Below, one piece after another: positions 26,216 through 60,665 of a DNA stretch of 64,000 bases. Position 1 is the first letter of the stretch; every line of letters begins with the position of its first letter. The notes under the pieces are model-generated. The model was not told the origin of the DNA. It worked only from the letters and a program-made list of their open reading frames with translations, and made no database searches. Made by a program: the position numbers and the translations under genes. Origin of the DNA: an uncultured Dehalococcoidales bacterium (GTDB lineage Bacteria; Chloroflexota; Dehalococcoidia; GIF9; UBA5629); the NCBI GenBank assembly GCA_964437795.1, contig CAYTIC010000001.1, forward strand, positions 86,864 through 150,863, in the 5' to 3' direction.

Positions 26216-26292
<77 letters not shown>

Positions 26293-40489: not shown

Positions 40490-40519
40490 TTCCCCGATAA
40501 CGTGTGTTTCAACGTGATT

Positions 40520-40548
40520 ATTCTATCTATATACCTGCTATAGTTCAA
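40520..40548 (-). promoter_or_regulatory. candidate sigma70-like promoter of tetR
   Basis: On the minus strand: TTGAAC (40548-43), 17 nt, TAGAAT (40525-20), about 30 nt upstream of the tetR ATG. It is followed by CACGTTgaaacaCACGTT repeats that could be the operator. Confidence 0.45.
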
Positions 40549-40589
40549 CTCCTTAAATGAGCCCTTCTATCGATTAAACACGTCAACCG

Positions 40590-41351: not shown

Positions 41352-41385
41352 GTTGTTAACTCCGATAATTTAGACTGAACGACGG

Positions 41386-42633: not shown

Positions 42634-42654
42634 TTCAGCCCCCCCGATATGAAA

Positions 42655-45138: not shown

Positions 45139-46284
45139 TCAGCCGGATGCGTTATCGACGATTTCAACTACATCCAGTATTTGAATTGAATCGCTCGCGC
45201 CCAGGGTGAGCACGGCGTCTTCAAACATCGTCATGCAATAGGGGCATGAAACGGCCAATACCTGTGCCCCGCTTTCCATCGCCTGCCTGACGCGCAGTTC
45301 GGCGAACCGCTCCTCTTTCTTCGATTCCAACCAGAGGCCGCCGGCGCAACCGCCGCAGCATAATGAATCTGCGTGATGGTCGGACATTTCTACCAGGTCC
45401 ACCCCCGGGATGCTGTGCAAAACATTGCGGGGCTCATCATAAATGCCCTGATACCTGCCCAGGCAGCAGGAATCGTGATAGGCAACCTTCTTTTGCGGGC
45501 CCTTGCCCAATTTAACGCTGCCCGCTTTTATCAGCTCATCCAAATACCGGACTATATGGATTACCTCGAAACCGCCGCCGAGCTCAGGGTATTCGTCCTT
45601 TAAAGTGTTGTAACAGTGCGGCGACCCTACCAATATCCTCTTGACGCCCGCAGACTTCAGTGTCTCTATGTTATTCGATGCCAGGCTGGTAAAAAGGCCC
45701 TCCTTGCCCGCCTTCCGTATGCTTTCCCCGCAGCAGGACAGGCCTTTATCGATTATGCCGAAATCCACGTTGGCCCTGCGCAGGACATTTATCATTGACA
45801 CGGCTGTTCTTCGGCACCTGACGTCATAAGCCTGATAGCAGCAAACATACATCAGCATGTCGGTATTTGTTGAATACGCAGCGACATTCAGGCCCCTTAA
45901 CCATTCAGTGCGCGCTTCGTCCGGCTCGCCCAGCGGATTGCCCACACCGGCCAGGTTGGAGGCCACCGTGCGCAGGGAGCGGGGTATCGCGCCCGCGCCT
46001 ACTTCAGAGATGACCCTTCTGAGCGACCTGATCATGCGGGGTATGTCCACGCCGCGCGGACAGGCCTGTGCGCACGATCTGCACCCCACACACTTCCATA
46101 TCTCCTCGTTACCGAAATCGATCAATCCCAGCTGGGCCTGATGCAGCAGGCTGCGAACACCCAGATGCCCGCCTATGTTCCACGGACATACAGCTGTGCA
46201 CAACCCGCACTGAAAACAGTGATCGAGGTCTGCGCCGCCCTGCTCCTTTATGGCATCAGTGATTTCCGGTGATATATCCACCAT
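45139..46284 (-). CDS. soluble HdrD-like (fused HdrC+HdrB) Fe-S/CCG-domain protein occupying the QmoC position
   Basis: 381 aa. CFQCGLCTAVCP and CVGCRSCAQACP, then two CCG-type Cys-rich regions (VCCYQ..SCCGES..PHC; DSCCLG..LCCGGCAGG..SCPYC). No hydrophobic segment. Confidence 0.7.
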   Translation of the reverse strand: MVDISPEITDAIKEQGGADLDHCFQCGLCTAVCPWNIGGHLGVRSLLHQAQLGLIDFGNEEIWKCVGCRSCAQACPRGVDIPRMIRSLRRVISEVGAGAIPRSLRTVASNLAGVGNPLGEPDEARTEWLRGLNVAAYSTNTDMLMYVCCYQAYDVRCRRTAVSMINVLRRANVDFGIIDKGLSCCGESIRKAGKEGLFTSLASNNIETLKSAGVKRILVGSPHCYNTLKDEYPELGGGFEVIHIVRYLDELIKAGSVKLGKGPQKKVAYHDSCCLGRYQGIYDEPRNVLHSIPGVDLVEMSDHHADSLCCGGCAGGLWLESKKEERFAELRVRQAMESGAQVLAVSCPYCMTMFEDAVLTLGASDSIQILDVVEIVDNASG

Positions 46285-46314
46285 CTACGCTGTATTCCTT
46301 GCGATCATCTGCAT

Positions 46315-48444
46315 TTACAGATCCTTATACGGGTTCGGCCCGATCTTCTCAATCCCGGTTAGAAACTCATCCAGAATGCCCGGCAGTGTGCCGTATTCCT
46401 CCACGGAAAGCTGCACTACACGCAGCCGCTCCGGCTCCAGCGCCAGCTTGTTAAGGGTATCCTGCATCTTTTGAATCCTGTCGTCGGCCAGCTCGCTGCC
46501 GGTTATGTTATGGCACTGATAGTCTCCACCGTATTTGCAGCCCACCATGATGATGCCGTCGAAACCGCTGGAGAGCGCATCGACGATCCAGACCATATTT
46601 ATCGATCCCAGGCACCTCACGGGTATGACCCTGATAAAGGGATTGAAGGCCATGCGCCCGGTACAGGCCATGTCCAGGGCGGGGTAAGCATCGTTTTCGC
46701 ACAAAAATGCTAGTATGCGCGGCTTGTCCTCTTCCGCCCCCGGCATCTGAATTGACTTGATCATTGATCCTATAATGTCAACCGAATAGTCGGCAAACGA
46801 AATAATCCTCTCAGGACACGCGCCCATACAGATGCCGCACCTCCTGCACCGCGTGGGATTGGGCAGCGGATTATACTTATCGTCCTCGTCATACATGCCG
46901 AAAGGGCACTCTTCAGTGCATCTCTTGCACTGGGTGCACCTGGCCATATAGAGGTCGGGGTAACTGGTATCGCCGGCCCTGGGATGCACTGACTCTCCCC
47001 TGGCAACCATTTCCACACATTGAATGGCCTTGACCACGGCGCCGTTTGCATCTTCACAGCTTGACAGGCTGTCTAAGGGTTGCCTGGCACAGCCGGCTGA
47101 GTAGACGCCTGTACGGCGTGTCTCATAGGGAAAACAGATAAAATGCGAATCCGGGAACCCGTATTTAAGCTCCGGCAATTCCGCGCCCTGCCTGTAGGCC
47201 AGGCTGAGCGCCGGCGGGGGTGACGGTTCAATGCCCGCAGCCAGGACCACCAGGTCGGCCTGTACAGTCACCTTCTCGCCCAAGAGAAGGTCCTGCATTT
47301 CAACCATAATGCCGTTTTCAGCGGCGGCCACTCCGGTTATCTCCGCCCTGGCCAGGTAAACAGACCCCGACTCCTGCGTATTTCGATAGAACTCCTCGTA
47401 CAGGGAAGGCGCGCGCATGTCCTTGTAGAAAATATAGGCCTTTGAATCGGCATTGCTCTTCGTTACGTAAACCGCCTGCTTGAGGGAGGTCAGGCAGCAG
47501 AAGGACGAGCAATACGGCAGATGGCTGTCGTCACGCTGCCCGGCGCACTGAATAAACGCCACGCTTTTTACAGGCTTGCCGTCCGACGGCCTTTTGATCA
47601 CGCCGTCGAAGGCCAATTGCTCCATTTGTACGTTGGTGATGATATCCGGGTGACTGCCGAAACCCAGGTGCGCCAGGCGTTCGGCATTATACGGCTGAAA
47701 TCCGGTGGCTTGAATAATGGAGCCCACCCTCAAAGATACGGCGCCGCTCGGACTCCTGAGAGAAACATCGAACATACCCGGCGAACCCTCGATCTTCTCG
47801 ACCTCCGCCGACTTGAATACCCTGATCAGCGGGTCGTTTTCCAGGGCGGCGGCCAGCGCTACAATCCCGGTGTCCTCCGGTTCCCGGTACGGGGGATGCT
47901 TTGGATATCCACGATATAGTTTCGTCATCCACCCGCCTAAAGAAGGGCTCTTTTCCACCAGGCACACCTCGTATCCGGCCCCGGCGGCGCCCAGCGCGGC
48001 GGTGATCCCAGTTATACCGCCCCCTATGACCAAAATAGTCTTGCTGATCTCGGGCAAATACGGTACCGCAGGAGATGTTTTGGCGATCCCGGCGAGGCCC
48101 ATCCTCAGGCAATCTTCCGCCATCATCTGCGTATCCGGATCGCCAGGCAGGTGGGACCAGGCCACCTGCTCCCTTAAATTCACCCTTTCCAGGATCACAG
48201 AACTATCGAAGGTGAAACATCCCTGTTTAACACGTGGCGAGCAGGCGCCTATCACCAGCCTGCAAGGACTGCCGGCAATGTCATCATCTATCGATAGCCG
48301 CCCATCTGCGCTGCACAGTGACGGATGGATCCGGCAAATGTCGGCTTTATATTCATTGACCGCCACTTCGCTCAATTTCTCGAGTGAAAGGGCCTCCCCG
48401 ATGCCGCACCCGCTGCACAAATATACGGCCAGTTTATTTGCCAT
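46315..48444 (-). CDS. qmoB: QmoB-like HdrA-family flavoprotein with C-terminal MvhD-like domain
   Basis: Start set at MANKLAVYLCSGCG. FAD fold ILVIGGGITGITAA, ferredoxin motifs CTQCKRCTEECP and CRRCGICMGACP, and the C-terminal ILAFLCENDAYPA...VRCLG...GCKYGGDYQCH (MvhD type). Confidence 0.75.
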   Translation of the reverse strand: MANKLAVYLCSGCGIGEALSLEKLSEVAVNEYKADICRIHPSLCSADGRLSIDDDIAGSPCRLVIGACSPRVKQGCFTFDSSVILERVNLREQVAWSHLPGDPDTQMMAEDCLRMGLAGIAKTSPAVPYLPEISKTILVIGGGITGITAALGAAGAGYEVCLVEKSPSLGGWMTKLYRGYPKHPPYREPEDTGIVALAAALENDPLIRVFKSAEVEKIEGSPGMFDVSLRSPSGAVSLRVGSIIQATGFQPYNAERLAHLGFGSHPDIITNVQMEQLAFDGVIKRPSDGKPVKSVAFIQCAGQRDDSHLPYCSSFCCLTSLKQAVYVTKSNADSKAYIFYKDMRAPSLYEEFYRNTQESGSVYLARAEITGVAAAENGIMVEMQDLLLGEKVTVQADLVVLAAGIEPSPPPALSLAYRQGAELPELKYGFPDSHFICFPYETRRTGVYSAGCARQPLDSLSSCEDANGAVVKAIQCVEMVARGESVHPRAGDTSYPDLYMARCTQCKRCTEECPFGMYDEDDKYNPLPNPTRCRRCGICMGACPERIISFADYSVDIIGSMIKSIQMPGAEEDKPRILAFLCENDAYPALDMACTGRMAFNPFIRVIPVRCLGSINMVWIVDALSSGFDGIIMVGCKYGGDYQCHNITGSELADDRIQKMQDTLNKLALEPERLRVVQLSVEEYGTLPGILDEFLTGIEKIGPNPYKDL

Positions 48445-49705
48445 TTGACCGCCCTTTCCTGACCGACCCAATAGCCTTCAAAACTGCGCCCGTCGCGTCT
48501 CTGACCGACGATCCCACGTCCATCGGCCTTTTCACGCATCCCGCGGCGTAAATACCCGCCAGGTCGGAGACCATAAATCCGCAGGAGTCTTTGCCGGGTC
48601 CGGCGGGCAGCCAGTCCGTCGCTGCAGGGACCATTCCCGTGGCCAGCACCACCATGTCCACCCTTTGCCTGACCATTTTTCCCTGCTCTGTATCCTCAGC
48701 TTCGACGAAAAGGTCGTTTGTTGCGGGGTCCTGCTTTATGCGTGATACCTTCCCGCGAAGGAACGACACCCCTTGCATATCCTGAATCCGACGGTAAAAA
48801 TCCTCCTGCGTACCCTGGGCCCGCAAGTCGATGTAATAGATGGCCACCCGGGCATCCGGATTGTGCTCCTTAATATAAGTTGCCTGCTTAAGCGAAGCCA
48901 TGCAGCAGACGCCCGAACAGTAGGACAGGTGGTTTACGTCCCGGGAGCCCGCACACTGCACGAATGCGATTGAGGATACCTCTTTTCCGTCCGACGGACG
49001 CACCAGGCGCCCGTCACGCAGCCCGGCGCCTGATGCCAGCCTCTCCATCATCATATTGGTGATTACATTGGGATAAACGCCGAAGCCGAGCCGGTTCAGC
49101 CGGGCTGCATCATAAGATTCCCAACCCGTGGTCACTATAATCGATCTGCAATTGACCGTGACCACCTGCTCTTCCATCTGCAGGTCGATAGCCCCGTAAC
49201 GGCAGGCGGAAACGCATTTTGCGCAATCGCTGCCCGTACAGGCATCTTTATCCACGGTATATGTCGGAGGATATGCCTGCACATGCGGCAGGTAAATAGC
49301 TTTAGTGTTGTCCCACCCGTAGTTGAAATCGTTCGGCCTTTGGACCGGGCAAACCGTTTCACATTCGCCGCAGGCCGTGCAATTATCGTTCACCATGCGC
49401 GGCAGCAGCCGGACCGATACCTTGAAGTCTCCCTCACTTCCCTCAACAGCCTCCACCATAGCCATGGTGAAAACCCTGATTCCCCGATTAACCTTGATCC
49501 GCTTGAAATTGAGCTCGAGGCCGCAGGCCGGGGGACATAGTTTGGGGAAATAGCGGCTCATCCTGACGGCCTTCCCTCCCAGGAAAGGCTCCTTCTCAAG
49601 CAGGATGATCTTGTAACCTATCTCGACCGCCTCAACCGCCGCGGCTATCCCGCTTACACCGCCGCCCACTACCAGGATATCGGTTGAAACAGCAGTCTGT
49701 TGCAT
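48434..49705 (-). CDS. qmoA: QmoA-like HdrA-family flavoprotein
   Basis: 423 aa. ILVVGGGVSGIAAA, CTACGECETVCP, FVQCAGSRD..SYCSGVCC. Confidence 0.75.
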   Translation of the reverse strand: MQQTAVSTDILVVGGGVSGIAAAVEAVEIGYKIILLEKEPFLGGKAVRMSRYFPKLCPPACGLELNFKRIKVNRGIRVFTMAMVEAVEGSEGDFKVSVRLLPRMVNDNCTACGECETVCPVQRPNDFNYGWDNTKAIYLPHVQAYPPTYTVDKDACTGSDCAKCVSACRYGAIDLQMEEQVVTVNCRSIIVTTGWESYDAARLNRLGFGVYPNVITNMMMERLASGAGLRDGRLVRPSDGKEVSSIAFVQCAGSRDVNHLSYCSGVCCMASLKQATYIKEHNPDARVAIYYIDLRAQGTQEDFYRRIQDMQGVSFLRGKVSRIKQDPATNDLFVEAEDTEQGKMVRQRVDMVVLATGMVPAATDWLPAGPGKDSCGFMVSDLAGIYAAGCVKRPMDVGSSVRDATGAVLKAIGSVRKGRSNGK

Positions 49706-49720: not shown

Positions 49721-51610
49721 TCAGCCGACCAATGGGATAACGTCCTTCTTAAATACCGACCATTTGCCGGAAGCGGGGTCCCACCTGCAATTGACGAAAC
49801 ACTTCCAGTTGCTGTCGTCCAGCCGGGGTACATCCGCCCGGAAATAGTAGCCGGGCCACCTGGTCTCTTCCCTGAAGAGCACCGAACGGATATGTGATTC
49901 GGCCTGCCACAGCCGGTGCTGGTTTTCCCAGCAGCGCATGAGCTCGTGGAGGTTTTCGGCCGCCAGTTTTTCCGCATCTTCGCGCAGGAAATCCAGCAAT
50001 TCAAGGCCCTTCTCCAACGAGAGCTTATTGGTCGTAAACTGGGTAGTTGCGCCCCCTGCGTACTCATCCATGATCTTCTGCAGCCGTACCATGAACTGCT
50101 TCGGCTTGAGATAATTTTCGCTGACATCCGGATTGTCGGTAAGTTTGCCGTACTGGTCAAACAGTTCAAGCGGTTTGAAAAGGCGTTTCTTAAGCGCTTC
50201 AACCTGCGCAGTATCGATGTTCGGCTGCTCCGGATGATCGACTATATAGGCGATGGATGCTTTAGCAGCGATCCTGCCTTCGCAATGCGAGCCGTCGGAG
50301 AACTTATGGCTGGATGCGCCGGACGCGTCGCCTGCGCAGAATATCCCTTTCACGGTGGCCATACGGTTATAACCCCAAAAATACTCTTTGGGTGACAGGT
50401 CTTCCGGTCCGCTGACCCATGCGCCCGAAGCGCCTGAATGCGAACCTATGAAATATGGTTCGCAGGCCTGTATTTCTGAGGGCTTTTCCTCGGGCTGCGT
50501 ATTGGTCCCCGCCCAGAGAATGGCCTGCGATATTGTCATATCCAGAAAATCTTCCCACGCTTCCGATTCGACCTCTTTCATGCGTTTTCGCCGTTCTTTT
50601 TCATCGCTGATGGCGGAGAGCATCCTGGCAATTGCTTCATCAGTTCGCATGTACATAGGGCCCTTGCCTTCATTTTGGTCCAGCATCATCAGGTAATTTC
50701 GCAGGTTGGCGGGGATGGGCTTGGACGATCCGTACGGCCCCCAGTTCTCCAGGTCTTTCTTGCGCTCCGACATGTAATCCTGGCCGAGCGCATTGGTAGC
50801 TATAGACTTGAAAAGAAGGAACCATGCGCCGACGGGCCCATAGGCGTCTTTGAAACGAACCGGGATAAAACGCACTTCCTGGCACGTCATCTCGCAGCCG
50901 CTCTTCAAAGTAAAATAGGCGCTTGAACCGCTGTTGAAGGGGGGATACCAGCTCCTTCCCTGCCCTTCACCTACCGAGCGGGGCCGGAATATGTGCACTG
51001 CACCGCCCATGGCCACCAGGACCGCTTTAGCCTTGAATATGTAGAACTTGTTCTCGCGTGTGCTGAAGCCGACAGCTCCTGCAACCCTGTCTCCATCGAT
51101 AAGCGGCTCTACTATGAATACCCGCTCATAGATATTATTTTCGCCAATAGTTGCCAGCGCGTTGCGGGCCGCCTCTGCAACAATGTTTTTATACGATTCA
51201 CCGTTGATCATGACCTGCCAGCCGCCCTCGAATACATAGTCGCCTTTATCGTCTTTCCAGATGGGAAGGCCCCACTTCTCGAAGAGGTGCACCGTGCTGT
51301 CCACGTGCCGCGCGATATCGTATACAAGGTCCTCGCGGGAGATGCCCATCAGGTCGTTCCTGACATAGCGCACGTAGTCTTCCGGGGTCTTGTCCCTGCT
51401 CTTCATGCCGACATACATATTGAGAGCGGAAAGCCCCTGTGCGACCGCGCCGCTGCGCTCGATGGCAGCCTTGTCGACCAGCGTCACCTTCAGGTTGTGC
51501 CTCTTCGCCCAGTAAGCGGCTTCGACCGCGGCGCCGCAGGCCGCCATGCCGCCGCCGATGATAAGCAGGTCGGTGTTTACTTCTACCGTCTGTATTTCTG
51601 ACATGAACAA
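49721..51610 (-). CDS. aprA: adenylylsulfate (APS) reductase alpha subunit
   Basis: 629 aa. DLLIIGGGMAACGAAVEA FAD fold, with length and sequence typical of AprA, directly after aprB. The true start may be the ATG at 51604 (MSEIQTV). Confidence 0.85.
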   Translation of the reverse strand: MFMSEIQTVEVNTDLLIIGGGMAACGAAVEAAYWAKRHNLKVTLVDKAAIERSGAVAQGLSALNMYVGMKSRDKTPEDYVRYVRNDLMGISREDLVYDIARHVDSTVHLFEKWGLPIWKDDKGDYVFEGGWQVMINGESYKNIVAEAARNALATIGENNIYERVFIVEPLIDGDRVAGAVGFSTRENKFYIFKAKAVLVAMGGAVHIFRPRSVGEGQGRSWYPPFNSGSSAYFTLKSGCEMTCQEVRFIPVRFKDAYGPVGAWFLLFKSIATNALGQDYMSERKKDLENWGPYGSSKPIPANLRNYLMMLDQNEGKGPMYMRTDEAIARMLSAISDEKERRKRMKEVESEAWEDFLDMTISQAILWAGTNTQPEEKPSEIQACEPYFIGSHSGASGAWVSGPEDLSPKEYFWGYNRMATVKGIFCAGDASGASSHKFSDGSHCEGRIAAKASIAYIVDHPEQPNIDTAQVEALKKRLFKPLELFDQYGKLTDNPDVSENYLKPKQFMVRLQKIMDEYAGGATTQFTTNKLSLEKGLELLDFLREDAEKLAAENLHELMRCWENQHRLWQAESHIRSVLFREETRWPGYYFRADVPRLDDSNWKCFVNCRWDPASGKWSVFKKDVIPLVG

Positions 51611-51623: not shown

Positions 51624-52076
51624 TCAGTCCTTTTTTAACGTCGGTAATTTTTCGATGCCCAGTGATTCTGGCTCAGTGAACAACAGCGGGCTTTTCAATT
51701 CGTCAGCCTCAGGCGCTGTATTAAAGCCCCCGTCCGGAACCGCCGAGCCCTCGGGAGTGGTGCGGGTGCGAAACTTAAAGCGCTTGATGGCGCCGTTTCT
51801 GAATTTCACGGTCCAGATGATGCTGTCGCTGCCTCTCAGAGGTGTAACACTCGCTCCAAGGGGCACGAAATCCGCGTATCCCCTGACGGCTATAGCCTGC
51901 TGAGGGCATATCTTTACGCAGCTATAGCATTCCCAGCACATGGAAGGGTCGCGGTTGAATGCCTTCTGCGTCTCTCCATTCAGGGCCATCAGGTCGTTGG
52001 GACAAATGTACTGGCAGGCTGTCTTATCCTTGCCTTTGCAGCCGTCACATTTACTGATGATTACAAAACTCGGCAT
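51624..52076 (-). CDS. aprB: adenylylsulfate (APS) reductase beta subunit
   Basis: 150 aa. Hallmark N-terminus MPSFVIISKCDGCKG, CQYICPNDLM, CWECYSCVKICPQ. Confidence 0.85.
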   Translation of the reverse strand: MPSFVIISKCDGCKGKDKTACQYICPNDLMALNGETQKAFNRDPSMCWECYSCVKICPQQAIAVRGYADFVPLGASVTPLRGSDSIIWTVKFRNGAIKRFKFRTRTTPEGSAVPDGGFNTAPEADELKSPLLFTEPESLGIEKLPTLKKD

Positions 52077-52091: not shown

Positions 52092-52916
52092 TTACATATA
52101 GCCCAGGCCGCGCAAGCGTTTCATCATCTTTTCCTTGTCCTGCCGCCGGCCCGCTCTCTCCGTCGTGTGTTCAAGGTCCTGCTCCCAGGCAGGAACGCCC
52201 GGGGCCGCTATGGCGCTGGTGGTCTTTGCTCCCAGCGATCGATAGCCTTTTTCGTACAGTATGCAATAGGGTATTTTAAATACCTGATACGTGTTCCATA
52301 GCTCTCTCTCCGAGAAGTGCAGTATGGGCTTAATGCGCGTATGCTGGGGGATCAGGTAGGCCGCTTCTTTTACCTCGAAATAGTCGTCCTCGGCACGGGC
52401 GTTCTGCTCGTCCCTCCGCAAACCCTGGAAGATCGCCTTGACCCCGTTCTGTTCGATATACACGTTGAACATGACCGTTTTCATCAGGTGATTGCCGGTA
52501 TATGATTCAGCCTCGAAGGGAAATGTATCTTCCTTGTAGTCTATGCGCTTGAGTTCAGCCTGGTTTCTCTCGTTTAAATCCTTGACCTTGACGATGTTAT
52601 TCAGCTTGCCGCCGGCGGCCTTGATAACATCATCGTTGCGCATCCATGTCAGATCCAGCTTCCATTCCGCCGCATAGCGGTCCATGAAATCGTGTATCTC
52701 GTCGAAGGTATCGAACTCGTCTATCGTCATGACTTTGGGGACCTTTATTTTGTCCTCCTGGCAGACCTGGCGAATAATCCACAGCGCAAGCGTGCTGTCC
52801 TTGCCACCCGTCCAGGTGATAGCAAGATCATCCAGCTTAAACTTGCCGAATGACTCCCTGACTATTGCCTTCGACTTGTCGATCAGTCCCGCGCATTCTT
52901 TTTCCATACTGGCCAT
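52092..52916 (-). CDS. CysD-like PP-loop enzyme (PAPS-reductase/sulfate-adenylyltransferase-subunit-2 family)
   Basis: 274 aa. PP-loop ITWTGGKDST, GLRRDE, and a CysD-type C-terminus TTERAGRRQDKEKMMKRLRGLGYM* (compare E. coli CysD ...[26 protein letters not shown], from memory). Confidence 0.65.
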   Translation of the reverse strand: MASMEKECAGLIDKSKAIVRESFGKFKLDDLAITWTGGKDSTLALWIIRQVCQEDKIKVPKVMTIDEFDTFDEIHDFMDRYAAEWKLDLTWMRNDDVIKAAGGKLNNIVKVKDLNERNQAELKRIDYKEDTFPFEAESYTGNHLMKTVMFNVYIEQNGVKAIFQGLRRDEQNARAEDDYFEVKEAAYLIPQHTRIKPILHFSERELWNTYQVFKIPYCILYEKGYRSLGAKTTSAIAAPGVPAWEQDLEHTTERAGRRQDKEKMMKRLRGLGYM

Positions 52917-52932: not shown

Positions 52933-54138
52933 TTACTTTATCCATCTTTTTATCCTTGGTTTGAGCCTGGATTGCAGCCTTACTGTCTCCTTTGAAGACT
53001 GTGCAATATCGTGCAACTCACCCGGGTCGTCCTTGAGGTCATACAGCTCCCAGCGGTCCGGTTCCGCCCTGTAGATCAGCTTCATGTCGCCTTCCCGGCA
53101 GAAATACACATCCTTATTGATGTCGCCGCCTTTGACGCTTTTATTGTCGATGGCCTCACCGAAGGCGCCCTTTTCAACATATGCCCCCACGGGCAGCAGT
53201 GATTGTCCCTGGAAAGACGCCGCCGGATCGATACCGAAAAGGTGGAGAATAGTGGGCGGAATGTCTATGCTGCTGACCAGGCTGGAGCATACACCGCTTG
53301 AATCCGCCCCGTATATCAGCAACGGGACATCGATCAATTCCGCATACAGCTTGTCGTCGTGCGACAGCCCGCCGTGCTCGTTAAACTCATCCCCGTGGTC
53401 GCTGGTCATGATGACGGTGGTGGAATCGAGTATATGCAAATCCTCAAGCGATTTAAATAACGACTGTACGTAAGAATCCACCTCGCGGACGTGCACGTCA
53501 TACAGCCGTTTCAGCAGTGTTACCCTGGCGGGATCCGAGACGTCCCTCTTGAGCAGAGTATCCTCAAACAGCGCATACATCTCGTCCTGGCTGATCTTAA
53601 TTTCGGGGTCTACCATGTCTACATAGCTTCTTTCCGGCATATAAGGCTCATGCACGTCCATGTAATGAAGCCATAAAAAGAACGGAGCATGGTCTTTCTT
53701 CTTTACATAGGACGAAAGCCACTGCACTACCTTGTCATTGATCGTGTAACCCCGCACATATGACAGGCGTTCATCTTCGAGATCGTCGTCCAGGGAGTCA
53801 TAGAACACGTCCCATCCCCGGTCCCAGCCCAGCACGGAGCTGCAATAGGGATTGGAATGGAACCCGGCGGTGTATATGCCGGCTTTTTGCAGTACCTCCG
53901 ATACTATGGAGCGCCGGGGCGCCAAACCTTCGGGCTTACCGTAATCCAGGTAGTACCCCGAGCACAATATGGCGGGAAACGACGCCTGGGTATAAGGACC
54001 GGCGCTCTGGCTCCCGGTAAATACTATGCTGCGGTCTTTGAGGGAGTCGACGAACGGGGTTAATCCCCTGGTATTACCATACAGCCCGAATACATCCTTC
54101 CGGGTTGCATCCAGTGTAATCAAGACAACGTTTTTCAT
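52933..54138 (-). CDS. sulfatase/alkaline-phosphatase-superfamily enzyme without a canonical formylglycine motif
   Basis: 401 aa. NVVLITLDATRKD metal site, MTSDHGDEFNEHG, and a WELYDLKDDPGE tail typical of PF00884. The nucleophile region reads SAGPYTQASFPAILCSG instead of C/S-x-P-x-R-xxxx-TG. Confidence 0.65.
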   Translation of the reverse strand: MKNVVLITLDATRKDVFGLYGNTRGLTPFVDSLKDRSIVFTGSQSAGPYTQASFPAILCSGYYLDYGKPEGLAPRRSIVSEVLQKAGIYTAGFHSNPYCSSVLGWDRGWDVFYDSLDDDLEDERLSYVRGYTINDKVVQWLSSYVKKKDHAPFFLWLHYMDVHEPYMPERSYVDMVDPEIKISQDEMYALFEDTLLKRDVSDPARVTLLKRLYDVHVREVDSYVQSLFKSLEDLHILDSTTVIMTSDHGDEFNEHGGLSHDDKLYAELIDVPLLIYGADSSGVCSSLVSSIDIPPTILHLFGIDPAASFQGQSLLPVGAYVEKGAFGEAIDNKSVKGGDINKDVYFCREGDMKLIYRAEPDRWELYDLKDDPGELHDIAQSSKETVRLQSRLKPRIKRWIK

Positions 54139-54168
54139 AGTGATAATTGATTGAAAAAGGGGCCGGAC

Positions 54169-55497
54169 TTAATATCCCAGCCGTTTCATCCTTGTTTCCA
54201 TCTTCTTCTTTTTATCGGCGCTGCTTGCTGCCGGACGTGCTGCCTGTGTTGCAGGGGCAGACTGGTCGGTGGCTATTTCGCTGGAGGCCTTGCCCTTCAC
54301 CAGCGTCCCGGCCGTGCTGCCGGAAATCGGCCTTGCCTGGGGGTTGAACGCCTCCGGCCCGTACAGCCTGTTCCACATGTCGAGTTTTTCCGAGTCAAGC
54401 TTTCTGCCCTGCAGTCCCGGGTAGTCCGGATCATAGCGGTGGCAGCGGAATGTGCAGTTGCTCAGGCCGTAAGGTGAAAGGGTATCCCTGTGGTTATAGA
54501 AAGGCACTATATATTCCCAGACGATTTCGCCTGTGGTGGTAACTTCGAAGAAACGCCCCATCCCGCCTTCGCACACCAGCGTATTGCCGTTGGGCAGCCG
54601 TTCACAGCCGCCGATATAGGTCGTATTGAAATCTACGGGGTTCTCTTCCCTGAACTCCCACTCGACCTCGTTGGTTTTGGGGTTCACTTCAACGACGCGG
54701 CTGCCGTCCGGCGGGAAGTAATCAACGTTGTACCTGTTGTTATTGAGCACCAGTATGTTGCCGTTATCCAGCAGCGTGGGGTTGTGCGGCATAGAGAGGA
54801 AGCCTTTTCCCCAGCGCCACTTGAAATCGCCGGAACTCCTGTCGATGATAAAAAGGTTGTCGCAGCCGAAAGAACATAACATGATGTCGCCGTTGGGCAA
54901 TTCCTCGAGTGAATTGAGGCCCACCCATGCCAGGCGCATCTGCAGCGGCGCGAAACAATCGAGCTCGAGGTCGAAGTGCTGATAACCCAGCCATTCCCAG
55001 GCTATTTTGCCCTGCGGGGTGATCTCCTGTATTACGTTGCCGTGAAGAGGTATGTCAATGCCGAGGATGCCTTTAGGAGACACGCCGCCCTGCACTTTGG
55101 CGGCTATTTCTTCCGGAATCGGGACGTACTTCATGATAAGCGTATTGCCGTTCTTGCTGCGCTTGCGATCATGGGCGTCCATGTTTTCATCCTCGTATTT
55201 CCAGACCACATTGCCGTCCCAGTCCAGTTCAACGACGCGTTTTGCCACAGTCGGTATCGATGAAGGAGGCGCTCCCACGTCATCCAGGGCACACAGGATA
55301 TTCCCGTTGGGAAGCAGGTCCGCATGCAGGCGCACCCACCCCGGCAGTTTCCAGCGGTGAACGAAACGTCCCTGCATATCGATCAGCCAGGTATTGCCCG
55401 GTACCTGTGTCATTGGGCTGAACAACGTGAAGCCGGGATATGCTTTGTGTGGTTTATACTCGGTAACCGATTGTAATGCTCTTCTTGCGGATGGCAT
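54169..55497 (-). CDS. arylsulfotransferase (ASST)-like beta-propeller protein, cytoplasmic, with a low-complexity linker and a CysD-like C-terminal tail
   Basis: 442 aa with no signal peptide. Repeated blade motifs LPNGNIL, KNGNTLI, LPNGDIML, LDNGNILVLNN and LPNGNTLV recall the Arylsulfotran family. The C-terminal 60 aa are A/S/P/Q-rich and end KKKKMETRMKRLGY*. Confidence 0.55.
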   Translation of the reverse strand: MPSARRALQSVTEYKPHKAYPGFTLFSPMTQVPGNTWLIDMQGRFVHRWKLPGWVRLHADLLPNGNILCALDDVGAPPSSIPTVAKRVVELDWDGNVVWKYEDENMDAHDRKRSKNGNTLIMKYVPIPEEIAAKVQGGVSPKGILGIDIPLHGNVIQEITPQGKIAWEWLGYQHFDLELDCFAPLQMRLAWVGLNSLEELPNGDIMLCSFGCDNLFIIDRSSGDFKWRWGKGFLSMPHNPTLLDNGNILVLNNNRYNVDYFPPDGSRVVEVNPKTNEVEWEFREENPVDFNTTYIGGCERLPNGNTLVCEGGMGRFFEVTTTGEIVWEYIVPFYNHRDTLSPYGLSNCTFRCHRYDPDYPGLQGRKLDSEKLDMWNRLYGPEAFNPQARPISGSTAGTLVKGKASSEIATDQSAPATQAARPAASSADKKKKMETRMKRLGY

Positions 55498-55693: not shown

Positions 55694-56335
55694 TCAATAA
55701 TGAGCTATCAGCCAGGCCGCCGCTTCACCGCGTGTGTGCAGACACACCTTCTTCATCACGTTTCGCATATGCACTTTGACCGTATTCTCCGATATCGAGA
55801 GCGTCGCAGCTATATCCTTATTGACATGGCCTTTGCCGACCAGCGCGAGGACTTCCCTCTCCCTGTTAGTCAATAACGGCACACGGACATGCACCTTTTT
55901 CTGCAGGCTGTCGAACGTATGCAGTACGCTGTTTGCCATTTGCGGGGAAAGCACCAGCTCACCGTCGGCGATCAGGGTAACGGCCTTCACCAGGTTTTCA
56001 AGGGTTATGTCCCGGGTTACATAACCGGACGCTTCGTGATGAATAATCGTGCCCAGGTCCTGTTGCTCTTTGGGCCATCCGAACACGAGTATTTTCACAT
56101 CGGGCATGTCACGGTGGATAAGCGATATCACCTCGTCATAGGTACAGGCCCTTATCTCGGAGTCGATCAGCACCACATCCGGCTTTTCGCGCTGGGCAAT
56201 TTTGACCACCTCGAATCCCGTGCTGCATACTCCCACGACGCGGATGGCCGTGTCGGATTCCAGCAGTTTCGGCAACGCTTTACAAATAATGTCCATAGTA
56301 TCGGCAACTATGAGCTTTACCGCTGTGCTAACCAA
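55694..56335 (-). CDS. NarL/LuxR-type response regulator with an atypical receiver domain
   Basis: Start set at the TTG 8 nt after GGAGG. The C-terminal LTNREREVLALVGKGHVNKDIAATLSISENTVKVHM is a LuxR HTH. The receiver has A-D instead of D-D, keeps VVLIDSE, has VFGWP instead of S/T, and GYVTRD instead of K. Confidence 0.7.
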   Translation of the reverse strand: MVSTAVKLIVADTMDIICKALPKLLESDTAIRVVGVCSTGFEVVKIAQREKPDVVLIDSEIRACTYDEVISLIHRDMPDVKILVFGWPKEQQDLGTIIHHEASGYVTRDITLENLVKAVTLIADGELVLSPQMANSVLHTFDSLQKKVHVRVPLLTNREREVLALVGKGHVNKDIAATLSISENTVKVHMRNVMKKVCLHTRGEAAAWLIAHY

Positions 56336-56531
56336 TCTGCTTTCCTCCTGCCGTTCAACGACAGCATAATACCATGGTATTAGTGGCGTAAACAATATGT
56401 CAAGTAATATGTATGACGTTACAGGTTATATTGACTTACATTCAAATTCTCAATCTAACCCCCTATTGGTATTGCCAATCCCGCCATTAAGGTTTAGATT
56501 TTATTGTAAATCGGGGAGACAGGAGGGACAT

Positions 56532-57821
56532 TTGAGCGAAATAAAGCAGAAGTATAAAGTGGGCGGCAGTGGAGCGGTCTTCGTACTCATCATTCTATTC
56601 CTCCTTTATATCCTGAACTTCGCCGACCGGGCCATAGTGGCAATCGTGCTGCAGCCGATGAAGGAAGCGCTGCAGTTGACCGATGCCCAGGCGGGGGCGA
56701 TGCAATCCATTTTCCTGCTGGGGGCAGGTCTGCTGATGATTCCCGGCGCCATCTTTGTAGAAAGGTGGAGCCGCCGCAAGATGCTGGGCATTATGGCCCT
56801 TATCTGGAGCGTGGCCACGTTTGCCACCGGCCTGGGCACAAAATTCTGGCATATCATGTCGGCCCGGTTCGTGGTCGGCATCGGTGAAGCGGGCTATAAC
56901 CCCGGCGGCACCGCCTGGCTGTCCCTGGCTTTTTCCAAGAAGGTCCGGGGCAGGATACTTGGTTTATTCCAATCGGCGGCCCAGGTCGGTATGGCTGTAG
57001 GACTGATAATAGGAGGCCTGATAGTCACGCAGACCGGCGATTGGCGCATGCCGTTTTACATTTTTGCCATACCTGGAATTATATTGGGCATAATCACCTT
57101 CTTTCTGCCCGACTATGCAACGGTAAGGGAAAAAGGCGAAGCCGTTTTCAACAAGAAGTTTTTCTCCGAGGTGCTCGGCCTCTTCAAGATTAAGACGTAT
57201 TCCCTGAACATCATAGCCCAGTGCCTGTTTGCCTTTATCAGCATGACCATTCTGGGCTGGCTGCCCGCCCTGCTCATGAGGGCCTACAATATAGACGCGT
57301 TTCAGGCAGGCACAATTAACGGCCTGACAAGCCTGATAGTCCTGATCGGCGCGCCCCTGGGCGGCTTCCTGGGTGACAGGTGGCAGGCAAAGAAACACGG
57401 GGGCAGAGCTTACTTTATGGTAGTCGCCATGCTTGCTTATGCGATTGCGGCGACACTCATGATACTGTCTACTAATTATTCCCTGACAATCTACATCGTT
57501 ATGGCTTCGCTCGCTTCGTTTTGCTCTGCGCTGGCATTGCCGGGCCTTTTCGCCATCTGGACGGATGTACTGTCGCCCAAACACCGCACCACCGGTATCG
57601 GCATGGGCACCATGATTTCACTTGTCCTGGGCGCTGTGCCGGGACCGTTGTTTGTCGGTGCGGTATCCGATGCCCTGGGCGGAGGGGTCTTCGGCCTGAG
57701 AAGCGCATTCCTGCTGATGATGCCTGCGGCGTTTATAGCCACGATAATGTACTTCGTTATGTCCAGGTACTATCCCGCAGACAGTGCTAACATAAGCGAC
57801 GACGTCCTGGCAGAAAAGTAA
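56532..57821 (+). CDS. major facilitator superfamily transporter (anion:cation-symporter-like)
   Basis: Start set at the TTG after AGGAGGG. LNFADRAIVAIVLQPMKEALQLTDAQAG, and about 12 TM helices. Confidence 0.7.
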   Translation: MSEIKQKYKVGGSGAVFVLIILFLLYILNFADRAIVAIVLQPMKEALQLTDAQAGAMQSIFLLGAGLLMIPGAIFVERWSRRKMLGIMALIWSVATFATGLGTKFWHIMSARFVVGIGEAGYNPGGTAWLSLAFSKKVRGRILGLFQSAAQVGMAVGLIIGGLIVTQTGDWRMPFYIFAIPGIILGIITFFLPDYATVREKGEAVFNKKFFSEVLGLFKIKTYSLNIIAQCLFAFISMTILGWLPALLMRAYNIDAFQAGTINGLTSLIVLIGAPLGGFLGDRWQAKKHGGRAYFMVVAMLAYAIAATLMILSTNYSLTIYIVMASLASFCSALALPGLFAIWTDVLSPKHRTTGIGMGTMISLVLGAVPGPLFVGAVSDALGGGVFGLRSAFLLMMPAAFIATIMYFVMSRYYPADSANISDDVLAEK

Positions 57822-57858: not shown

Positions 57859-59520
57859 TTAGCCGGACTTCAACATCTCCCGCAGTTCACGTTTCAATAT
57901 CTTGCCGATGGCGCTGGTGGGCAGCGCATCCATAAATACGATTATCTTGGGCACCTTGTAAGGGGCTTCGCGCTGCCTGATGTAATCGCGTATCCTCTCC
58001 TTTTCAGACTCGGACTTCTCGATGCCCTCCTTGAGCACGATGGCGGAGGCCACCATCTCGTTGCCCGGCCGGTTGGGATCGGGAACGCCGATGGAGGCAG
58101 CCAGCGAGATATCGGGGTGCTCGATGATTATGTCATCAAGCTCGCGGGTGAATACCTTGTAGCCCGAGACGATTACCATGTCCTTGAGGCGGTCGACGAT
58201 ATAGATATAGCCTTCCTCGTCCATACGGCAGACGTCGCCGGTGTAGAACCACCCGTCTTTGAGGGCATTGGCCGTCTCCTCCGGCTTATTATGGTAACCC
58301 TTCATCACCTGCGGACCGCGCACCACCAGCTCGCCGGGCTCTCCCACGGGTACCGGCTCTTTGGTGGCGGGATCGACGATCTTGACCTCGGTATCGCCGA
58401 CGGGTAAACCGACCGAGCCGAACTTTCGCTTGCCGTAGCGGGGGTTGGCCGCGATGAGGGGACAGGTCTCGGTCATGCCGTAAACCTCGCTGAACTTGTC
58501 CTTGCCCACGATGTCCTCGAATCCCTTGAGATACTCAACGGGGAAGGGCGCCGCCCCGGCGATGCAGCCCCAGATGCCCGAGAAATCCAGCTCGCGGAAC
58601 TCAGGCTTCTTCATAAGTTCGAGATATATGGTAGGCACGGCCGTGAGCACGGTGGGCTTGTATTCCTTGATGCTCTTGATGATAAAGTCGTAATCGCGCG
58701 GGTTGGGCAGGGCAACCTGCGGCGTAGCCCACACCAGGCAGAACAGCCCGAGGAACAGGCCTGCCTGGTGAAAGAGCGGGAAGGGGCACAGTATGCGCTC
58801 CTGTCCCTTGACTGCGTCAACGTAGTTGCCCCACTGGATCATGTGGCGGACCACGTTGTTGTGCGTCAGCACAGCCCCCTTGGAGGGCCCGGTCGTGCCG
58901 CCGGTGTATTGCATCAGGAACGGCTCTTCGCCTTTGACCCTGATATTCACGGGATCGGCCGGGTACTCCTGCATGAGGTCGGTGAACCGGAATACCGGGA
59001 TGGGGGATTCGGGCAATTTGAGCGGCTGCGCATTGGGCAGAAAATCGCTGAAGCCCGTCAGCGCCATGCCCTTCAGTTTGACCTTGTCGATGACCTGGCT
59101 GATATTGCCCCAGAACACATCGAGCGCCAGCAGGAACTTGGCGCCCGAATCGTTGAGCTGGTATTCAAGCTCCCTGGGCGTCAGCAGCGGGCTGATGCCG
59201 GTAAGCACACAGCCTGCCCTGGAGATGGCCGGTATGGCGATATAGTAAGCGGGCAGGTTGAGCGAATACACCCCCACCACATCGCCCGGTTTCAATCCCT
59301 GCCTGATTAGAAAAGCGGCAAAACGGTTGGACAGCTCGTCGACCTGCCTGAAAGTTATCTCTTTCCCCATGTAATTCACCGCGGTGATATCCGGCACCTC
59401 GTTAACAGCTTCCAGGAAAAGGTCTGTGAACATCTTGTTCTCGGGGTAGTCGAAGTGGGCTTTCACGTGCGGGTCGAAGGACTTCTGCCAGAATTTACCG
59501 GCATAAGGATCACTCACCAT
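57859..59520 (-). CDS. AMP-dependent long-chain acyl-CoA synthetase/ligase
   Basis: 553 aa. LMQYTGGTTGPSKG, VYGMTE, WFYTGD, GKILKRELR. Confidence 0.8.
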   Translation of the reverse strand: MVSDPYAGKFWQKSFDPHVKAHFDYPENKMFTDLFLEAVNEVPDITAVNYMGKEITFRQVDELSNRFAAFLIRQGLKPGDVVGVYSLNLPAYYIAIPAISRAGCVLTGISPLLTPRELEYQLNDSGAKFLLALDVFWGNISQVIDKVKLKGMALTGFSDFLPNAQPLKLPESPIPVFRFTDLMQEYPADPVNIRVKGEEPFLMQYTGGTTGPSKGAVLTHNNVVRHMIQWGNYVDAVKGQERILCPFPLFHQAGLFLGLFCLVWATPQVALPNPRDYDFIIKSIKEYKPTVLTAVPTIYLELMKKPEFRELDFSGIWGCIAGAAPFPVEYLKGFEDIVGKDKFSEVYGMTETCPLIAANPRYGKRKFGSVGLPVGDTEVKIVDPATKEPVPVGEPGELVVRGPQVMKGYHNKPEETANALKDGWFYTGDVCRMDEEGYIYIVDRLKDMVIVSGYKVFTRELDDIIIEHPDISLAASIGVPDPNRPGNEMVASAIVLKEGIEKSESEKERIRDYIRQREAPYKVPKIIVFMDALPTSAIGKILKRELREMLKSG

Positions 59521-59668
59521 GCTGCAACCTCCTCAAACTATAAATCTGCCAGGATTTCTCTGTTTGTGCCCATCCAGTTTATCAAGGTTCTCTTATACAG
59601 TAAACATCAGCAGCCTTTGAAAAGGGGGTAAGGGTTTGCTATCATTCAAACCGCACTTGTAAAACCAT

Positions 59669-59899
59669 ATGGACCTGATAAAGACCCTCAGCAATGTCCT
59701 CGGCGTGATCTGCATCATTATCGGCGTTTTTCTGATACCGCTGAGCATCTGGTTTATTAAGCCGGCCATTAAAAACAAGGACAGGGTGTCCCTTGTCGTG
59801 GCGATCATTATCCTGGCCCTGTCAGCGGCCTGCTTCGTCGGGGCGTACATCATGTTTACAACCGGGCTGATTAAAATGGCCCCGACGCGGCTATACTGA
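59669..59899 (+). CDS. small membrane protein (2 TM), hypothetical
   Basis: 76 aa with two clear hydrophobic helices. No obvious RBS, so it is tentative. The antisense ORF 59593..59985 looks less protein-like. Confidence 0.35.
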   Translation: MDLIKTLSNVLGVICIIIGVFLIPLSIWFIKPAIKNKDRVSLVVAIIILALSAACFVGAYIMFTTGLIKMAPTRLY

Positions 59900-59906
59900 A
59901 ACTTCT

Positions 59907-60665
59907 TTAATAGACTGCGCCGCCATCCAGGAATATGGGGTGCCCCGATATGTAGCCGCCTTCGTCGGAGCACAGGAAAACACAAAGGTTCCCCACGTCA
60001 GCCGGCTGACAGATCCGTCCGAACGGCAGATTCCTGGCCAGTTCTTTCACTTCCATCCCCATTACGCCTTTGATCAGTCGTGCGCCCATATCGGTCTCCA
60101 CCAGGCCGCAGGCGATGGTGTTCACCCTGATATTGTGGCTTACCTCTTCCTTGGCCAGGCAGGAGGACAAGGCGTTGAGCCCTGCCTTGGCTACCGCATA
60201 GGGAGAATGCCCCGCCATGCAGCTGAAAGGGCTCACCGAGGATATGTTGATGATATCGCCGCGCTTCTGTTTCCTCAGTGCGGGCAGGGCTTCTTTAATG
60301 AAATAGAAGGCGCCCATCACGTGAATTTTGAAAAGCCGCTCCATCTCCTCCACTTCGGTATCGGCCACAAACCTCCCGCGTGAAGCTATGCCTGCATTGT
60401 TGACCAGTATGTCGATCTTACCGAACGTGTCGATTGTTTTGGCCACAACGGCCTTAACCTGTGCATAGTCGGTTACGTCGGCCTGTATCGACAGCGCCCG
60501 CCGTCCCAGTGCAACGATCTCCCCGTCAGTCGCTTTTGCCGCATCGGCATCGCGCCGGTAGTTGTACGCAATATCAGCGCCTTCCCCGGCTAAAGCGAGC
60601 GCTATACCTTTACCGATACCCCTGCCGCCGCCGGTAACCAGGGCTACCTTTCCTGATAATTTCAA
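59907..60665 (-). CDS. FabG-like short-chain dehydrogenase/reductase
   Basis: VALVTGGGRGIGKGIA, NNAG, YAVAK. Confidence 0.8.
   Translation of the reverse strand: MKLSGKVALVTGGGRGIGKGIALALAGEGADIAYNYRRDADAAKATDGEIVALGRRALSIQADVTDYAQVKAVVAKTIDTFGKIDILVNNAGIASRGRFVADTEVEEMERLFKIHVMGAFYFIKEALPALRKQKRGDIINISSVSPFSCMAGHSPYAVAKAGLNALSSCLAKEEVSHNIRVNTIACGLVETDMGARLIKGVMGMEVKELARNLPFGRICQPADVGNLCVFLCSDEGGYISGHPIFLDGGAVY

Follow-up and report, generated by a model that had tools for sequence, protein, structure and literature searches.

A threonine-type sulfatase-fold protein and its CysD-like partner form the core of an undescribed, APS-linked gene module of anaerobes

What is a sulfatase-fold protein that lacks the formylglycine motif doing in an operon with the genes for adenosine 5′-phosphosulfate (APS) reductase? 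The question is raised by a stretch of 64,000 nucleotides (nt) of contig CAYTIC010000001.1 (GenBank assembly GCA_964437795.1, from an uncultured Dehalococcoidales bacterium), which we call the window, and in particular by a protein of 401 amino acids (aa) encoded on its minus strand, which we call SULF. An earlier, sequence-only reading of the window had suggested that SULF is not a simple sulfatase and that its operon ties it to APS chemistry, and both suggestions are borne out: SULF is a non-formylglycine protein with Thr50 at the nucleophile column, and the genes around it do lead to APS. The decisive context lies beyond that reading, in a CysD-like partner protein, in gene fusions, in the alternation of ATP sulfurylase (Sat) and APS reductase (AprBA) genes beside the pair and in C-terminal tails common to its neighbours. 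SULF and the CysD-like protein turn out to be the core of a gene module, so far undescribed, in anaerobes. Since this module always sits beside APS-using enzymes, we think that SULF probably does not simply hydrolyse sulfate esters but moves sulfate groups to and fro between them and APS.

Threonine in the formylglycine column

In alignments to three solved sulfatases (5g2v, 4upl and 7oz8), for which phmmer single-sequence and family-profile alignments all agree on the register, Thr50 of SULF falls in the column of the formylglycine Cys/Ser and T-Q-A-S-F stands in place of C/S-x-P-x-R, so the formylglycine motif is indeed missing at its canonical position, as had been claimed, and a check for Cys or Ser with a P-x-R context at the nucleophile position finds threonine instead. 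Phe54 occupies the column of the motif Arg and T59/S60 that of the ‘TG’ pair; D10 is the first metal Asp and A11 stands for the second Asp/Gln; D247-H248 aligns with the D-(N/H/Q) pair, K263 with the active-site Lys and H163 with the ‘PH’ His. Of the sulfate-binding set, K263 and H163 thus align, the motif Arg is Phe54 and the K-x-H pair has no reliable placement. Direct reading of the DNA puts the ATG start codon at 54138 and the Thr50 codon, ACC, at 53989-53991, within GGT CCT TAT ACC CAG GCG TCG TTT CCC for G47 to P55; the D10 codon lies at 54109-54111. The motif strings quoted in the sequence-only reading are all where it had placed them (NVVLITLDATRKD at aa 3-15, MTSDHGDEFNEHG at aa 244-256, YDLKDDPGE at aa 366-374), and so is SDPAR (aa 201-205), the only S-x-P-x-R string, which had been judged about 150 residues too far downstream and which lies in our model at the start of a long helix (203-233), away from the active site.

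The rest of the protein has the sulfatase fold. PF00884 spans residues 2-303 (profile positions 1-301 of 301, E 8.5e-41) and an SGSH_C subdomain is matched at the C-terminal side, with SULF falling far under every cut-off of the curated NCBIfam sulfatase models (for arylsulfatase, 96 bits against 481). An AlphaFold2 model of SULF has a mean predicted local distance difference test (pLDDT) of 84 and a predicted template modelling score (pTM) of 0.89, and all 50 listed PDB matches of this model by Foldseek are formylglycine sulfatases or phosphonate monoester hydrolases (PMH), at TM scores of 0.60-0.77 normalised to the query, with no LtaS, EptA or NPP among those 50. In this first model the active-site loops 48-53, 58-67 and 253-265 lie at pLDDT below 50; in a deeper-alignment model of a SULF/CysD-like fusion the active-site loop exceeds 90 and a helix begins at about the nucleophile, which is where the nucleophile sits in the alkaline-phosphatase superfamily.

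Where, then, does SULF belong? With the S1 sulfatases (BT4656 5g2v, choline sulfatase 6g5z/7pth, SpAS2 4upl) it has in common the two-domain fold, the first metal Asp, the D-H pair, the ‘PH’ His, the active-site Lys and the SGSH_C subdomain, and it differs from them in having a Thr nucleophile, Phe for the motif Arg and Ala for the second metal Asp, in being cytoplasmic, in needing no maturase and in having an obligate CysD-like partner. Since neither the defining motif nor the Asp-Asp-FGly-Asp-Asn/His/Gln calcium site is present (Ala11 replaces the second Asp and Thr50 the FGly), SULF is not an S1 formylglycine sulfatase, and its nucleophile cannot collapse by the formylglycine hemiacetal route. 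The candidate metal ligands D10, T50, D247 and H248 agree with the Thr-type nucleophile that the earlier reading had asked about and form a set of the LtaS/EptA type (Glu/Asp-Thr-Asp-His). LtaS (2w8d, 4uoo) and the EptA/MCR-1 type (4kav, 5fgn) have this Thr-centred site, are transferases and not hydrolases, as SULF too may be, and match SULF weakly in sequence. Their catalytic domains lie outside the cytoplasm on multi-span membrane anchors and transfer phosphoglycerol or phosphoethanolamine from lipids, whereas SULF is soluble, has no transmembrane segment, carries the sulfatase C-terminal subdomain and is much nearer to the sulfatases. Because it has no membrane anchor and a sulfatase-type body, SULF is not a member of the LtaS/EptA group either. 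With no signal peptide, no transmembrane segment and no hydrophobic N-terminus (strand 3-9 of the catalytic domain comes first), it is a predicted cytoplasmic protein, and what we appear to have is a sulfatase body with a transferase-type nucleophile, in the cytoplasm.

The absence of a maturase gene, which the earlier reading had noted, was confirmed by Pfam scans of the window's larger ORFs (open reading frames, mostly of at least 150 aa), in which neither FGE nor a radical-SAM maturase was found, and a motif scan of the related loci introduced below found none. An FGE-like regular-expression match in the ORF at 3169-3996 of the window is not supported by Pfam as FGE, and CxxxCxxC matches in related loci are NPP-like proteins, not radical-SAM maturases. 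This absence is in any case irrelevant once the formylglycine motif itself is gone.

Is the substitution simply decay? The 120 closest homologues of SULF are 60-92% identical to it, and in all of them G47, Y49, T50, Q51, F54, P55, D10, D247 and H248 are invariant, with position 48 being Pro in 120 of 121 sequences; Thr50 is invariant across more than 240 homologues, and the nucleophile-loop motif is also conserved in a second homologue set. A loop so conserved has been selected, and is not decaying. Nor is it rare, and here the sequence-only reading needs correcting: the loss that it pointed out is real, and it is on its own an ordinary thing in PF00884. In an exhaustive search of 1.84 billion cluster representatives, the nucleophile column of the 150 nearest to SULF holds Thr in 139 and Ser in five, with C-x-P-x-R in none, and according to SulfAtlas, Thr holds the catalytic position in 30 of the 59 seed sequences of PF00884, which do not qualify as sulfatases (PMC5066984). 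What is distinctive is the compactness of the GPYTQ subfamily, as we call it after its nucleophile loop: three full-length clusters at 50% identity score 640-478 bits, followed by a gap down to 254 bits. SULF represents a distinct subfamily of a very large uncharacterised Thr-type clade inside PF00884, the ‘sulfatase-like hydrolase/transferase’ proteins with GP.T..SFP.ILTS or T-x-P-S-H motifs, from which it stands apart as a tight separate cluster and, among the loci examined, as the only one linked to CysD-like, ASST, Sat and Apr genes. Thr-type relatives at 25-35% identity to SULF have none of the module's neighbour genes.

Might SULF act on phosphate, as a phosphodiesterase, a nucleotide pyrophosphatase or a phosphotransferase, for example by hydrolysing pyrophosphate (PPi), APS, 3′-phosphoadenosine 5′-phosphate (PAP) or an adenylate to pull neighbouring reactions? 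It would then behave like all characterised Thr-type members of the superfamily, and the LtaS/EptA-like ligand set, the weak phmmer alignment of residues 4-260 to the EptA-type domains 4kav and 5fgn, the faint PF01663 (NPP family) matches and the PF01663 enzyme that neighbours SULF in two related loci (L006 and L008) would all fit. We rate this as very unlikely: the nearest proteins in sequence and fold are sulfatases and not LtaS, EptA or NPP, the PF01663 match covers residues 217-249 only (E 1.2e-05) and not the full length, alignment identifies no NPP-type second metal site in SULF, and the constant company of sulfotransferases argues for sulfuryl chemistry. In addition, neither APS kinase nor chemistry of 3′-phosphoadenosine 5′-phosphosulfate (PAPS) appears in any locus scanned, an APS-kinase motif being absent from the window and from 57 related loci (L001-L057); a PAP/PAPS phosphatase, one of the roles proposed earlier, has no support here, and the lack of a PAPS route would support a reading based on APS. 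Among the candidate roles of the sequence-only reading, which also included a phosphoryl transferase, the evidence favours a sulfuryl transferase.

The CysD-like partner and its module

The gene that begins 16 nt past the SULF stop codon encodes a member of the PAPS reductase family, and it is the identity of this partner that gives SULF its context. Its best NCBIfam match is CysD (NF003587, 74.8 bits against a cut-off of 195), its PDB matches are 8rom/8ron, the PAPS-reductase-like domain of human FAD synthase, and 1zun (CysD), and it is collinear with 1zun to the last residues, its own C-terminus reading ...TERAGRRQDKEKMMKRLRGLGYM. CysD is the catalytic subunit of ATP sulfurylase. We could rule out a PAPS/APS reductase of the CysH type, since the protein has no C-terminal ECGLH Cys, no Fe-S motif and no Cys cluster and ends instead in ...RLRGLGYM; it is, as far as sequence can tell, a homologue of the CysD/FAD-synthase-like PP-loop adenylyltransferases. 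Its homologues are 77-96% identical, above the conservation of SULF itself. In CysD-CysN and in PAPS synthase, the fusion of ATP sulfurylase and APS kinase, a CysD-type enzyme is likewise coupled or fused to a second APS-handling enzyme, an arrangement that overcomes or exploits the unfavourable APS equilibrium; the difference here is that the second enzyme is a sulfatase-fold protein, neither a GTPase nor a kinase, and no CysN-type GTPase gene was found in the related loci.

How constant is the pair? A one-genome-per-species scan gave 52 loci, metagenome contigs were added, and all were studied by tblastn, ORF clustering and Pfam, over at most 10 kb of sequence on each side. Counted over homologues of at least 46% identity in non-duplicate loci with enough sequence (n = 33), the CysD-like gene directly follows SULF in 30, usually less than 50 nt away, and the hosts span at least seven phyla, with Dehalococcoidia, Desulfobacterota (two complete chromosomes included), Acidobacteriota, Aminicenantes, Thermotogae and Actinomycetota among others. 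SULF and the CysD-like protein are also found as one ORF in three loci (L032 4279-6402, L041 9989-12112 and L060 10001-11725), and as one polypeptide in about 19 protein clusters within P0121-P0140 that are 51-92% identical; the fusions in Desulfobacterota-type metagenome-assembled genomes measure about 700 aa, of which about 20 form a disordered linker. This is a classical Rosetta-stone fusion.

The exceptions to pairing are L006 and L008, in which a 700-aa PF01663 enzyme takes the place of the CysD-like gene, and a truncated gene beside recombinases. L006 (5576-7663) and L008 (3097-5205) are Dehalococcoidia loci very near the window's own, where SULF is followed by a PF01663 phosphodiesterase-family protein of 695-702 aa with an RLxxLGY tail and where the contig part examined holds no Apr or Sat. 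The truncated gene (L038 9947-11032) is from Pseudoflavonifractor phocaeensis, the only cultured bacterium with a GPYTQ-type gene; it is cut short at its C-terminus, has no partner and has genes for a TAXI-like binding protein and three serine recombinases behind it, and it is probably a disrupted remnant and uninformative.

The genes on either side of the pair fall into a pattern. ATP sulfurylase lies directly beside it in 17 loci and AprBA-Qmo directly beside it in the window, L007, L009, L010 and L058/59, and in no locus, over the at most 10 kb examined on each side, do Sat and AprBA occur together. This alternation points to APS as the linking metabolite, since it is the sole metabolite common to both. 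The window-type block, with two OATP-like MFS genes, adjoins rpoBC in another metagenome (L058/L059) and therefore travels as a unit. In one further Dehalococcoidia locus, L004, two copies of the CysD-like gene (4225-5091 and 7715-8581) flank two arylsulfotransferase (ASST) genes, and there is also a divergent ATP sulfurylase, 36% identical to the common one, together with a DUF6955 gene.

With APS in view, one might ask whether SULF is simply a formylglycine-independent hydrolytic sulfatase, whose sulfate would be captured as APS for AprBA by the CysD-like protein working as a GTPase-less sulfurylase. Such an enzyme would be useful to strict anaerobes without a maturase; SULF keeps the sulfatase fold and some of the sulfate pocket, the partner runs collinear with CysD, PP-loop and C-terminus included, and the window's operon has no sat of its own. 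Indeed, a choline sulfatase with unmodified Cys turns over at 0.27 per second, with Ser variants losing 5- to 2500-fold (PMC6189696). We still think the idea quite unlikely: in 17 loci a canonical Sat directly beside the pair would duplicate the function of the partner, in the many Sat-type loci without Apr in the up to 10 kb examined on each side the APS would have no consumer, the fusion and tight coupling would be needless for freely diffusing sulfate, the sulfatase motif Arg and the second metal Asp have been replaced (F54, A11), and the ASSTs would be left without a role.

Genes for cytoplasmic ASSTs are present in 29 of 41 loci, where they number one to four and stand up to four in tandem, and none of the module ASSTs looked at has a signal peptide. 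Importers also recur (TRAP DctPQM in 13 loci, OATP-like MFS, NitT/TauT-type ABC), and the other neighbours are TauE/TSUP permeases of two clades, PF01663 NPP-like enzymes and two-component regulators; ORF clustering and Pfam found no biosynthetic genes in the module loci, and the module is regulated like a catabolic operon. In L034, L035 (1107-2564) and L037 (11216-12691) an MttB-family (quaternary-amine) methyltransferase and NitT/TauT-type ABC genes lie by SULF, which hints at choline-O-sulfate or a similar ester as a possible substrate there. The searchable full-text literature, which is incomplete, yielded no description of the module; what came up instead were general statements on sulfatases in Desulfatiglans and Dehalococcoidia (PMC6129605) and the SulfAtlas remark on Thr cited above.

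The module's proteins are also marked at their ends. Three unrelated families (ASST, CysD-like and NPP-like) have in common a C-terminal tail made of a basic stretch followed by RLxxLGY, which is present in all 25 of the CysD-like proteins, in all seven NPP-like proteins and both 700-aa ones, and in 23 of 43 ASSTs, preceded in the ASST and NPP-like proteins by a low-complexity linker. The tails of SULF's own neighbours read DKKKKMETRMKRLGY and KEKMMKRLRGLGYM, with the CysD-like partner ending ...DKEKMMKRLRGLGYM and the NPP-like protein of L006 ending ...EKKKKLNERLKKLGYDLPY; tail positions in other loci include L003 13755-13797 and L006 7600-7660. No such tail was found on Sat, transporters or regulators, it occurs on four of 240 other ORFs, and SULF proteins never carry it (none of 120); in contrast to the GPYTQ subfamily, 46 of 136 full-length Thr-type relatives of SULF do carry it in cis, and many other such relatives end in KIKKLKxxGKI. 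The simplest reading of a tail that is present on the partners, absent from SULF and found in cis on its relatives is that it binds the sulfatase-like domain, and RLxxLGY is thus probably a docking peptide for that domain; we infer that it moved onto the partners in the module, an exchange that suggests SULF may have been left as a multi-enzyme hub. A ‘swinging arm’, with the tail Tyr carrying the sulfuryl group in analogy to the Cys at the end of CysH, was also considered, and we gave this less weight because docking is simpler, because the KIKKLKxxGKI of many relatives has no Tyr and because CysD itself ends in ...RQGY.

A proposed sulfuryl transfer and its direction

What might the module do? 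Given a sulfatase-like pocket, an adenylate-handling partner, APS enzymes and a company of ASSTs and transporters, we propose a sulfuryl relay, in which SULF would be a non-hydrolytic Thr-type hub that feeds sulfate esters into APS, and we put this forward tentatively, with confidence that stops somewhat short of even. Sulfate esters would be imported by the module's MFS, TRAP, ABC or TSUP transporters; Thr50 would be the nucleophile on a single LtaS/EptA-type metal site (D10, T50, D247, H248); SULF would stand in physical complex with the neighbouring CysD-like PP-loop protein, and the ASST and NPP-like enzymes would probably also bind it, through the RLxxLGY tail. The sulfuryl group would pass from the ester to ASST/SULF, as sulfo-Thr50 or directly, and from there to AMP on the CysD-like subunit, giving APS. 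In the window, AprBA would reduce this APS with electrons from QmoAB-HdrBC, a scheme that would amount to sulfate-ester respiration without the ATP cost of sulfate activation, and in most other loci ATP sulfurylase would turn the APS into ATP and sulfate.

Some of what is known of sulfatases agrees with this. In work by Recksiek in 1998, human sulfatases whose FGly had been exchanged for Ser reportedly became trapped in the sulfated state, and a stable sulfo-enzyme would suit transfer over hydrolysis. Aryl sulfates lie only a few kcal/mol below APS in group-transfer potential, on a textbook-based estimate, so that a pull by Apr or Sat would, on this estimate, make the overall reaction exergonic. 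There is also a precedent of sorts in the caprazamycin Cpz4 system, a two-step, carrier-mediated sulfation with an ASST-type enzyme, in which, as proposed for the module, an ASST-family enzyme takes its sulfuryl group from an aryl-sulfate carrier and not from PAPS; unlike the module, that system is biosynthetic, depends on PAPS upstream and has no sulfatase-like or CysD-like component.

There are several points that weigh against the relay as we have drawn it. The intact PP-loop of the partner would point to adenylyl transfer with ATP/PPi and not mere AMP binding, and the scheme changes if the partner is itself an ATP sulfurylase. Sulfo-threonine, as an alkyl sulfate, lies below APS in transfer potential on a textbook-based estimate, so the last step would be uphill unless pulled by Apr or Sat. 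In L006 and L008 a PF01663 gene stands in place of the CysD-like gene. The AlphaFold2 model of the fusion has a pLDDT of 84 but a pTM of only 0.62. The direction of flux is not readable from sequence. Finally, unmodified Cys/Ser variants of true sulfatases do hydrolyse, if slowly (PMC6189696), and Thr is therefore compatible with hydrolysis.

It is direction that raises the most serious rival, namely that the module runs the other way, as PAPS-independent sulfation with sulfate (through Sat) or sulfite (through AprBA) as the source of APS. In such a scheme, APS would pass its sulfuryl group through the CysD-like protein and SULF to a phenolic carrier, and the ASSTs would hand it on to phenols, for detoxification or for activation before anaerobic degradation. 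Transfer from APS to an ester is downhill by textbook values, ASSTs are phenol sulfotransferases whose physiological donors have not been identified, and an intact PP-loop would fit APS synthesis by the CysD-like subunit with channelling to SULF. The window itself adds aromatic and acyl-CoA catabolism genes (amidohydrolase_2 decarboxylases, OYE, URO-D, CoA ligases, thiolases), and the matches of its MFS protein to aromatic-acid and hydroxyphenylacetate permeases would fit phenol import. Against this, AprBA with Qmo/HdrBC runs reductively as the norm in strict anaerobes, and it is not easy to see why sulfite should be oxidised for the sake of sulfating phenols; Sat and a CysD-like sulfurylase would be redundant, the loci have no sulfate importer of the usual type, and the TauE/TSUP, TRAP and TauT-type transporters are better suited to taking up organo-sulfur anions and exporting sulfite or sulfate. 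We consider this reversed, phenolic-carrier scheme fairly unlikely, and we continue to prefer the relay from sulfate esters to APS.

The operon in the window and what the module may mean

The SULF operon consists of eight minus-strand genes placed head to tail, with gaps of 13-30 nt and one overlap (Table 1). In the ASST, which matches the solved sulfotransferase 9kf4 weakly, H109, H174, R267, R300 and R354 are invariant in 39 homologues. The electron-transfer part (45139-49705) is a Qmo module of two HdrA-like proteins and a soluble HdrCB-like CCG protein that replaces the membrane QmoC and shows faint matches to qmoC, DsrK and HdrC in NCBIfam; the listed ORFs of QmoA and QmoB share 38 nt, and the true QmoB start is probably further downstream. 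Pfam, NCBIfam and motif scans found no sat, dsr or APS kinase in the window.

Table 1. Positions of the main genes, motifs and tails in the window, with the basis of each assignment
Feature	Position	Strand	Basis
SULF, 401 aa, Thr-type (GPYTQ subfamily) sulfatase-fold protein	52933..54138	(-)	ORF; PF00884; SGSH_C
SULF nucleophile loop G47-P-Y-T50-Q-A-S-F-P55	53974..54000	(-)	DNA read, alignments, invariance
SULF D247-H248, candidate metal ligands with D10 and T50	53395..53400	(-)	Invariant; aligned to the sulfatase D-(N/H/Q) pair
CysD-like partner (PAPS_reduct family), 274 aa	52092..52916	(-)	PF01507 E 6.4e-24
Intact PP-loop of the partner, T34-W-T-G-G-K-D-S41	52794..52817	(-)	W35, G37, K39, D40 and S41 invariant in 48 sequences
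C-terminal tail of the partner, ...ERAGRRQDKEKMMKRLRGLGYM	52095..52160	(-)	Invariant; collinear with CysD C-terminus
ASST-like cytoplasmic arylsulfotransferase beta-propeller, 442 aa	54169..55497	(-)	PF14269 E 1.2e-12; PF05935 E 3.4e-11
ASST tail, ...DKKKKMETRMKRLGY, behind an Ala/Pro/Ser-rich linker	54172..54216	(-)	Tail survey
AprB, APS reductase beta subunit	51624..52076	(-)	PF12139 E 6.3e-35
AprA, APS reductase alpha subunit	49721..51610	(-)	TIGR02061 909.5 bits, cut-off 641.75
HdrA-like flavoprotein, QmoA position	48434..49705	(-)	NCBIfam HdrA2-type matches; synteny with L007, L009, L010, L058
HdrA/MvhD-like protein, QmoB position	46315..48471	(-)	NCBIfam; synteny
HdrC/HdrB-like Fe-S/CCG protein, last operon gene	45139..46284	(-)	PF02754 CCG; 4Fe-4S
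NarL/LuxR-type response regulator upstream of the operon	55694..56395	(-)	NCBIfam; recurs in 9 loci and L058
MFS transporter, divergent, anion:cation symporter/aromatic-acid/OATP-like type	56397..57821	(+)	NCBIfam; OATP Pfam on L058 homologues

At 54161-54182 of the minus strand, a GC-rich hairpin followed by a T-run extends over the stop codon of the ASST gene, shortly ahead of the SULF start. It might act as an internal attenuator; sites of this kind show no enrichment over shuffles, and we set it aside as a terminator or attenuator. Around the operon (27684-44211 and 57859-60665) lie many genes of acyl-CoA and aromatic-acid catabolism, including four AMP-binding CoA ligases, thiolase-like proteins, an enoyl-CoA hydratase, an acyl-CoA dehydrogenase, an OYE flavoenzyme, amidohydrolase_2 decarboxylase-like proteins and SDRs, which fits an organism living on phenolic or aromatic acids. 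Two stretches of the window, 4001-8000 (acyltransferase_3 and a gene with a nitroreductase domain) and 26001-40000 (a beta-oxidation-like cluster, a PadR regulator and a URO-D-family gene), have a lower G+C content (0.43-0.52 against about 0.55 elsewhere) and may be acquired islands.

Why should any of this matter beyond one operon? The real interest is not the lost motif; it is a conserved, fusion-supported, APS-linked module with common tails, probably for docking, that is widespread in uncultured anaerobes. To our knowledge, all known sulfatases discard the large group-transfer energy of sulfate esters, and all known dissimilatory sulfate reducers spend ATP on APS. Sediments and soils hold a major pool of their sulfur as organic sulfate esters. 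It is possible, if on balance doubtful, that the module is an energy-conserving, ATP-free route that would carry sulfate esters to APS through ASSTs that take sulfuryl groups from imported aryl sulfates, a tail-docked hub that relays them and a CysD-like subunit that hands them to AMP. If that were true, the conversion of APS to ATP by ATP sulfurylase would be substrate-level phosphorylation from a sulfate ester, and the respiration of APS through AprBA/Qmo would be organosulfate respiration that skips the two-ATP cost of activation; the route would occur widely among subsurface Dehalococcoidia, Desulfobacterota, Aminicenantes and others, would open a new way into the sulfur cycle, would assign a role to the thousands of genes that are annotated as ‘arylsulfatase A-like’ or ‘PAPS reductase’ and would offer a PAPS-free catalyst of sulfuryl transfer. 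Were the direction reversed, the module would be the first APS-dependent, PAPS-independent sulfation system. As it stands, the module suggests that energy-starved anaerobes may capture sulfate esters as ready-activated sulfate.

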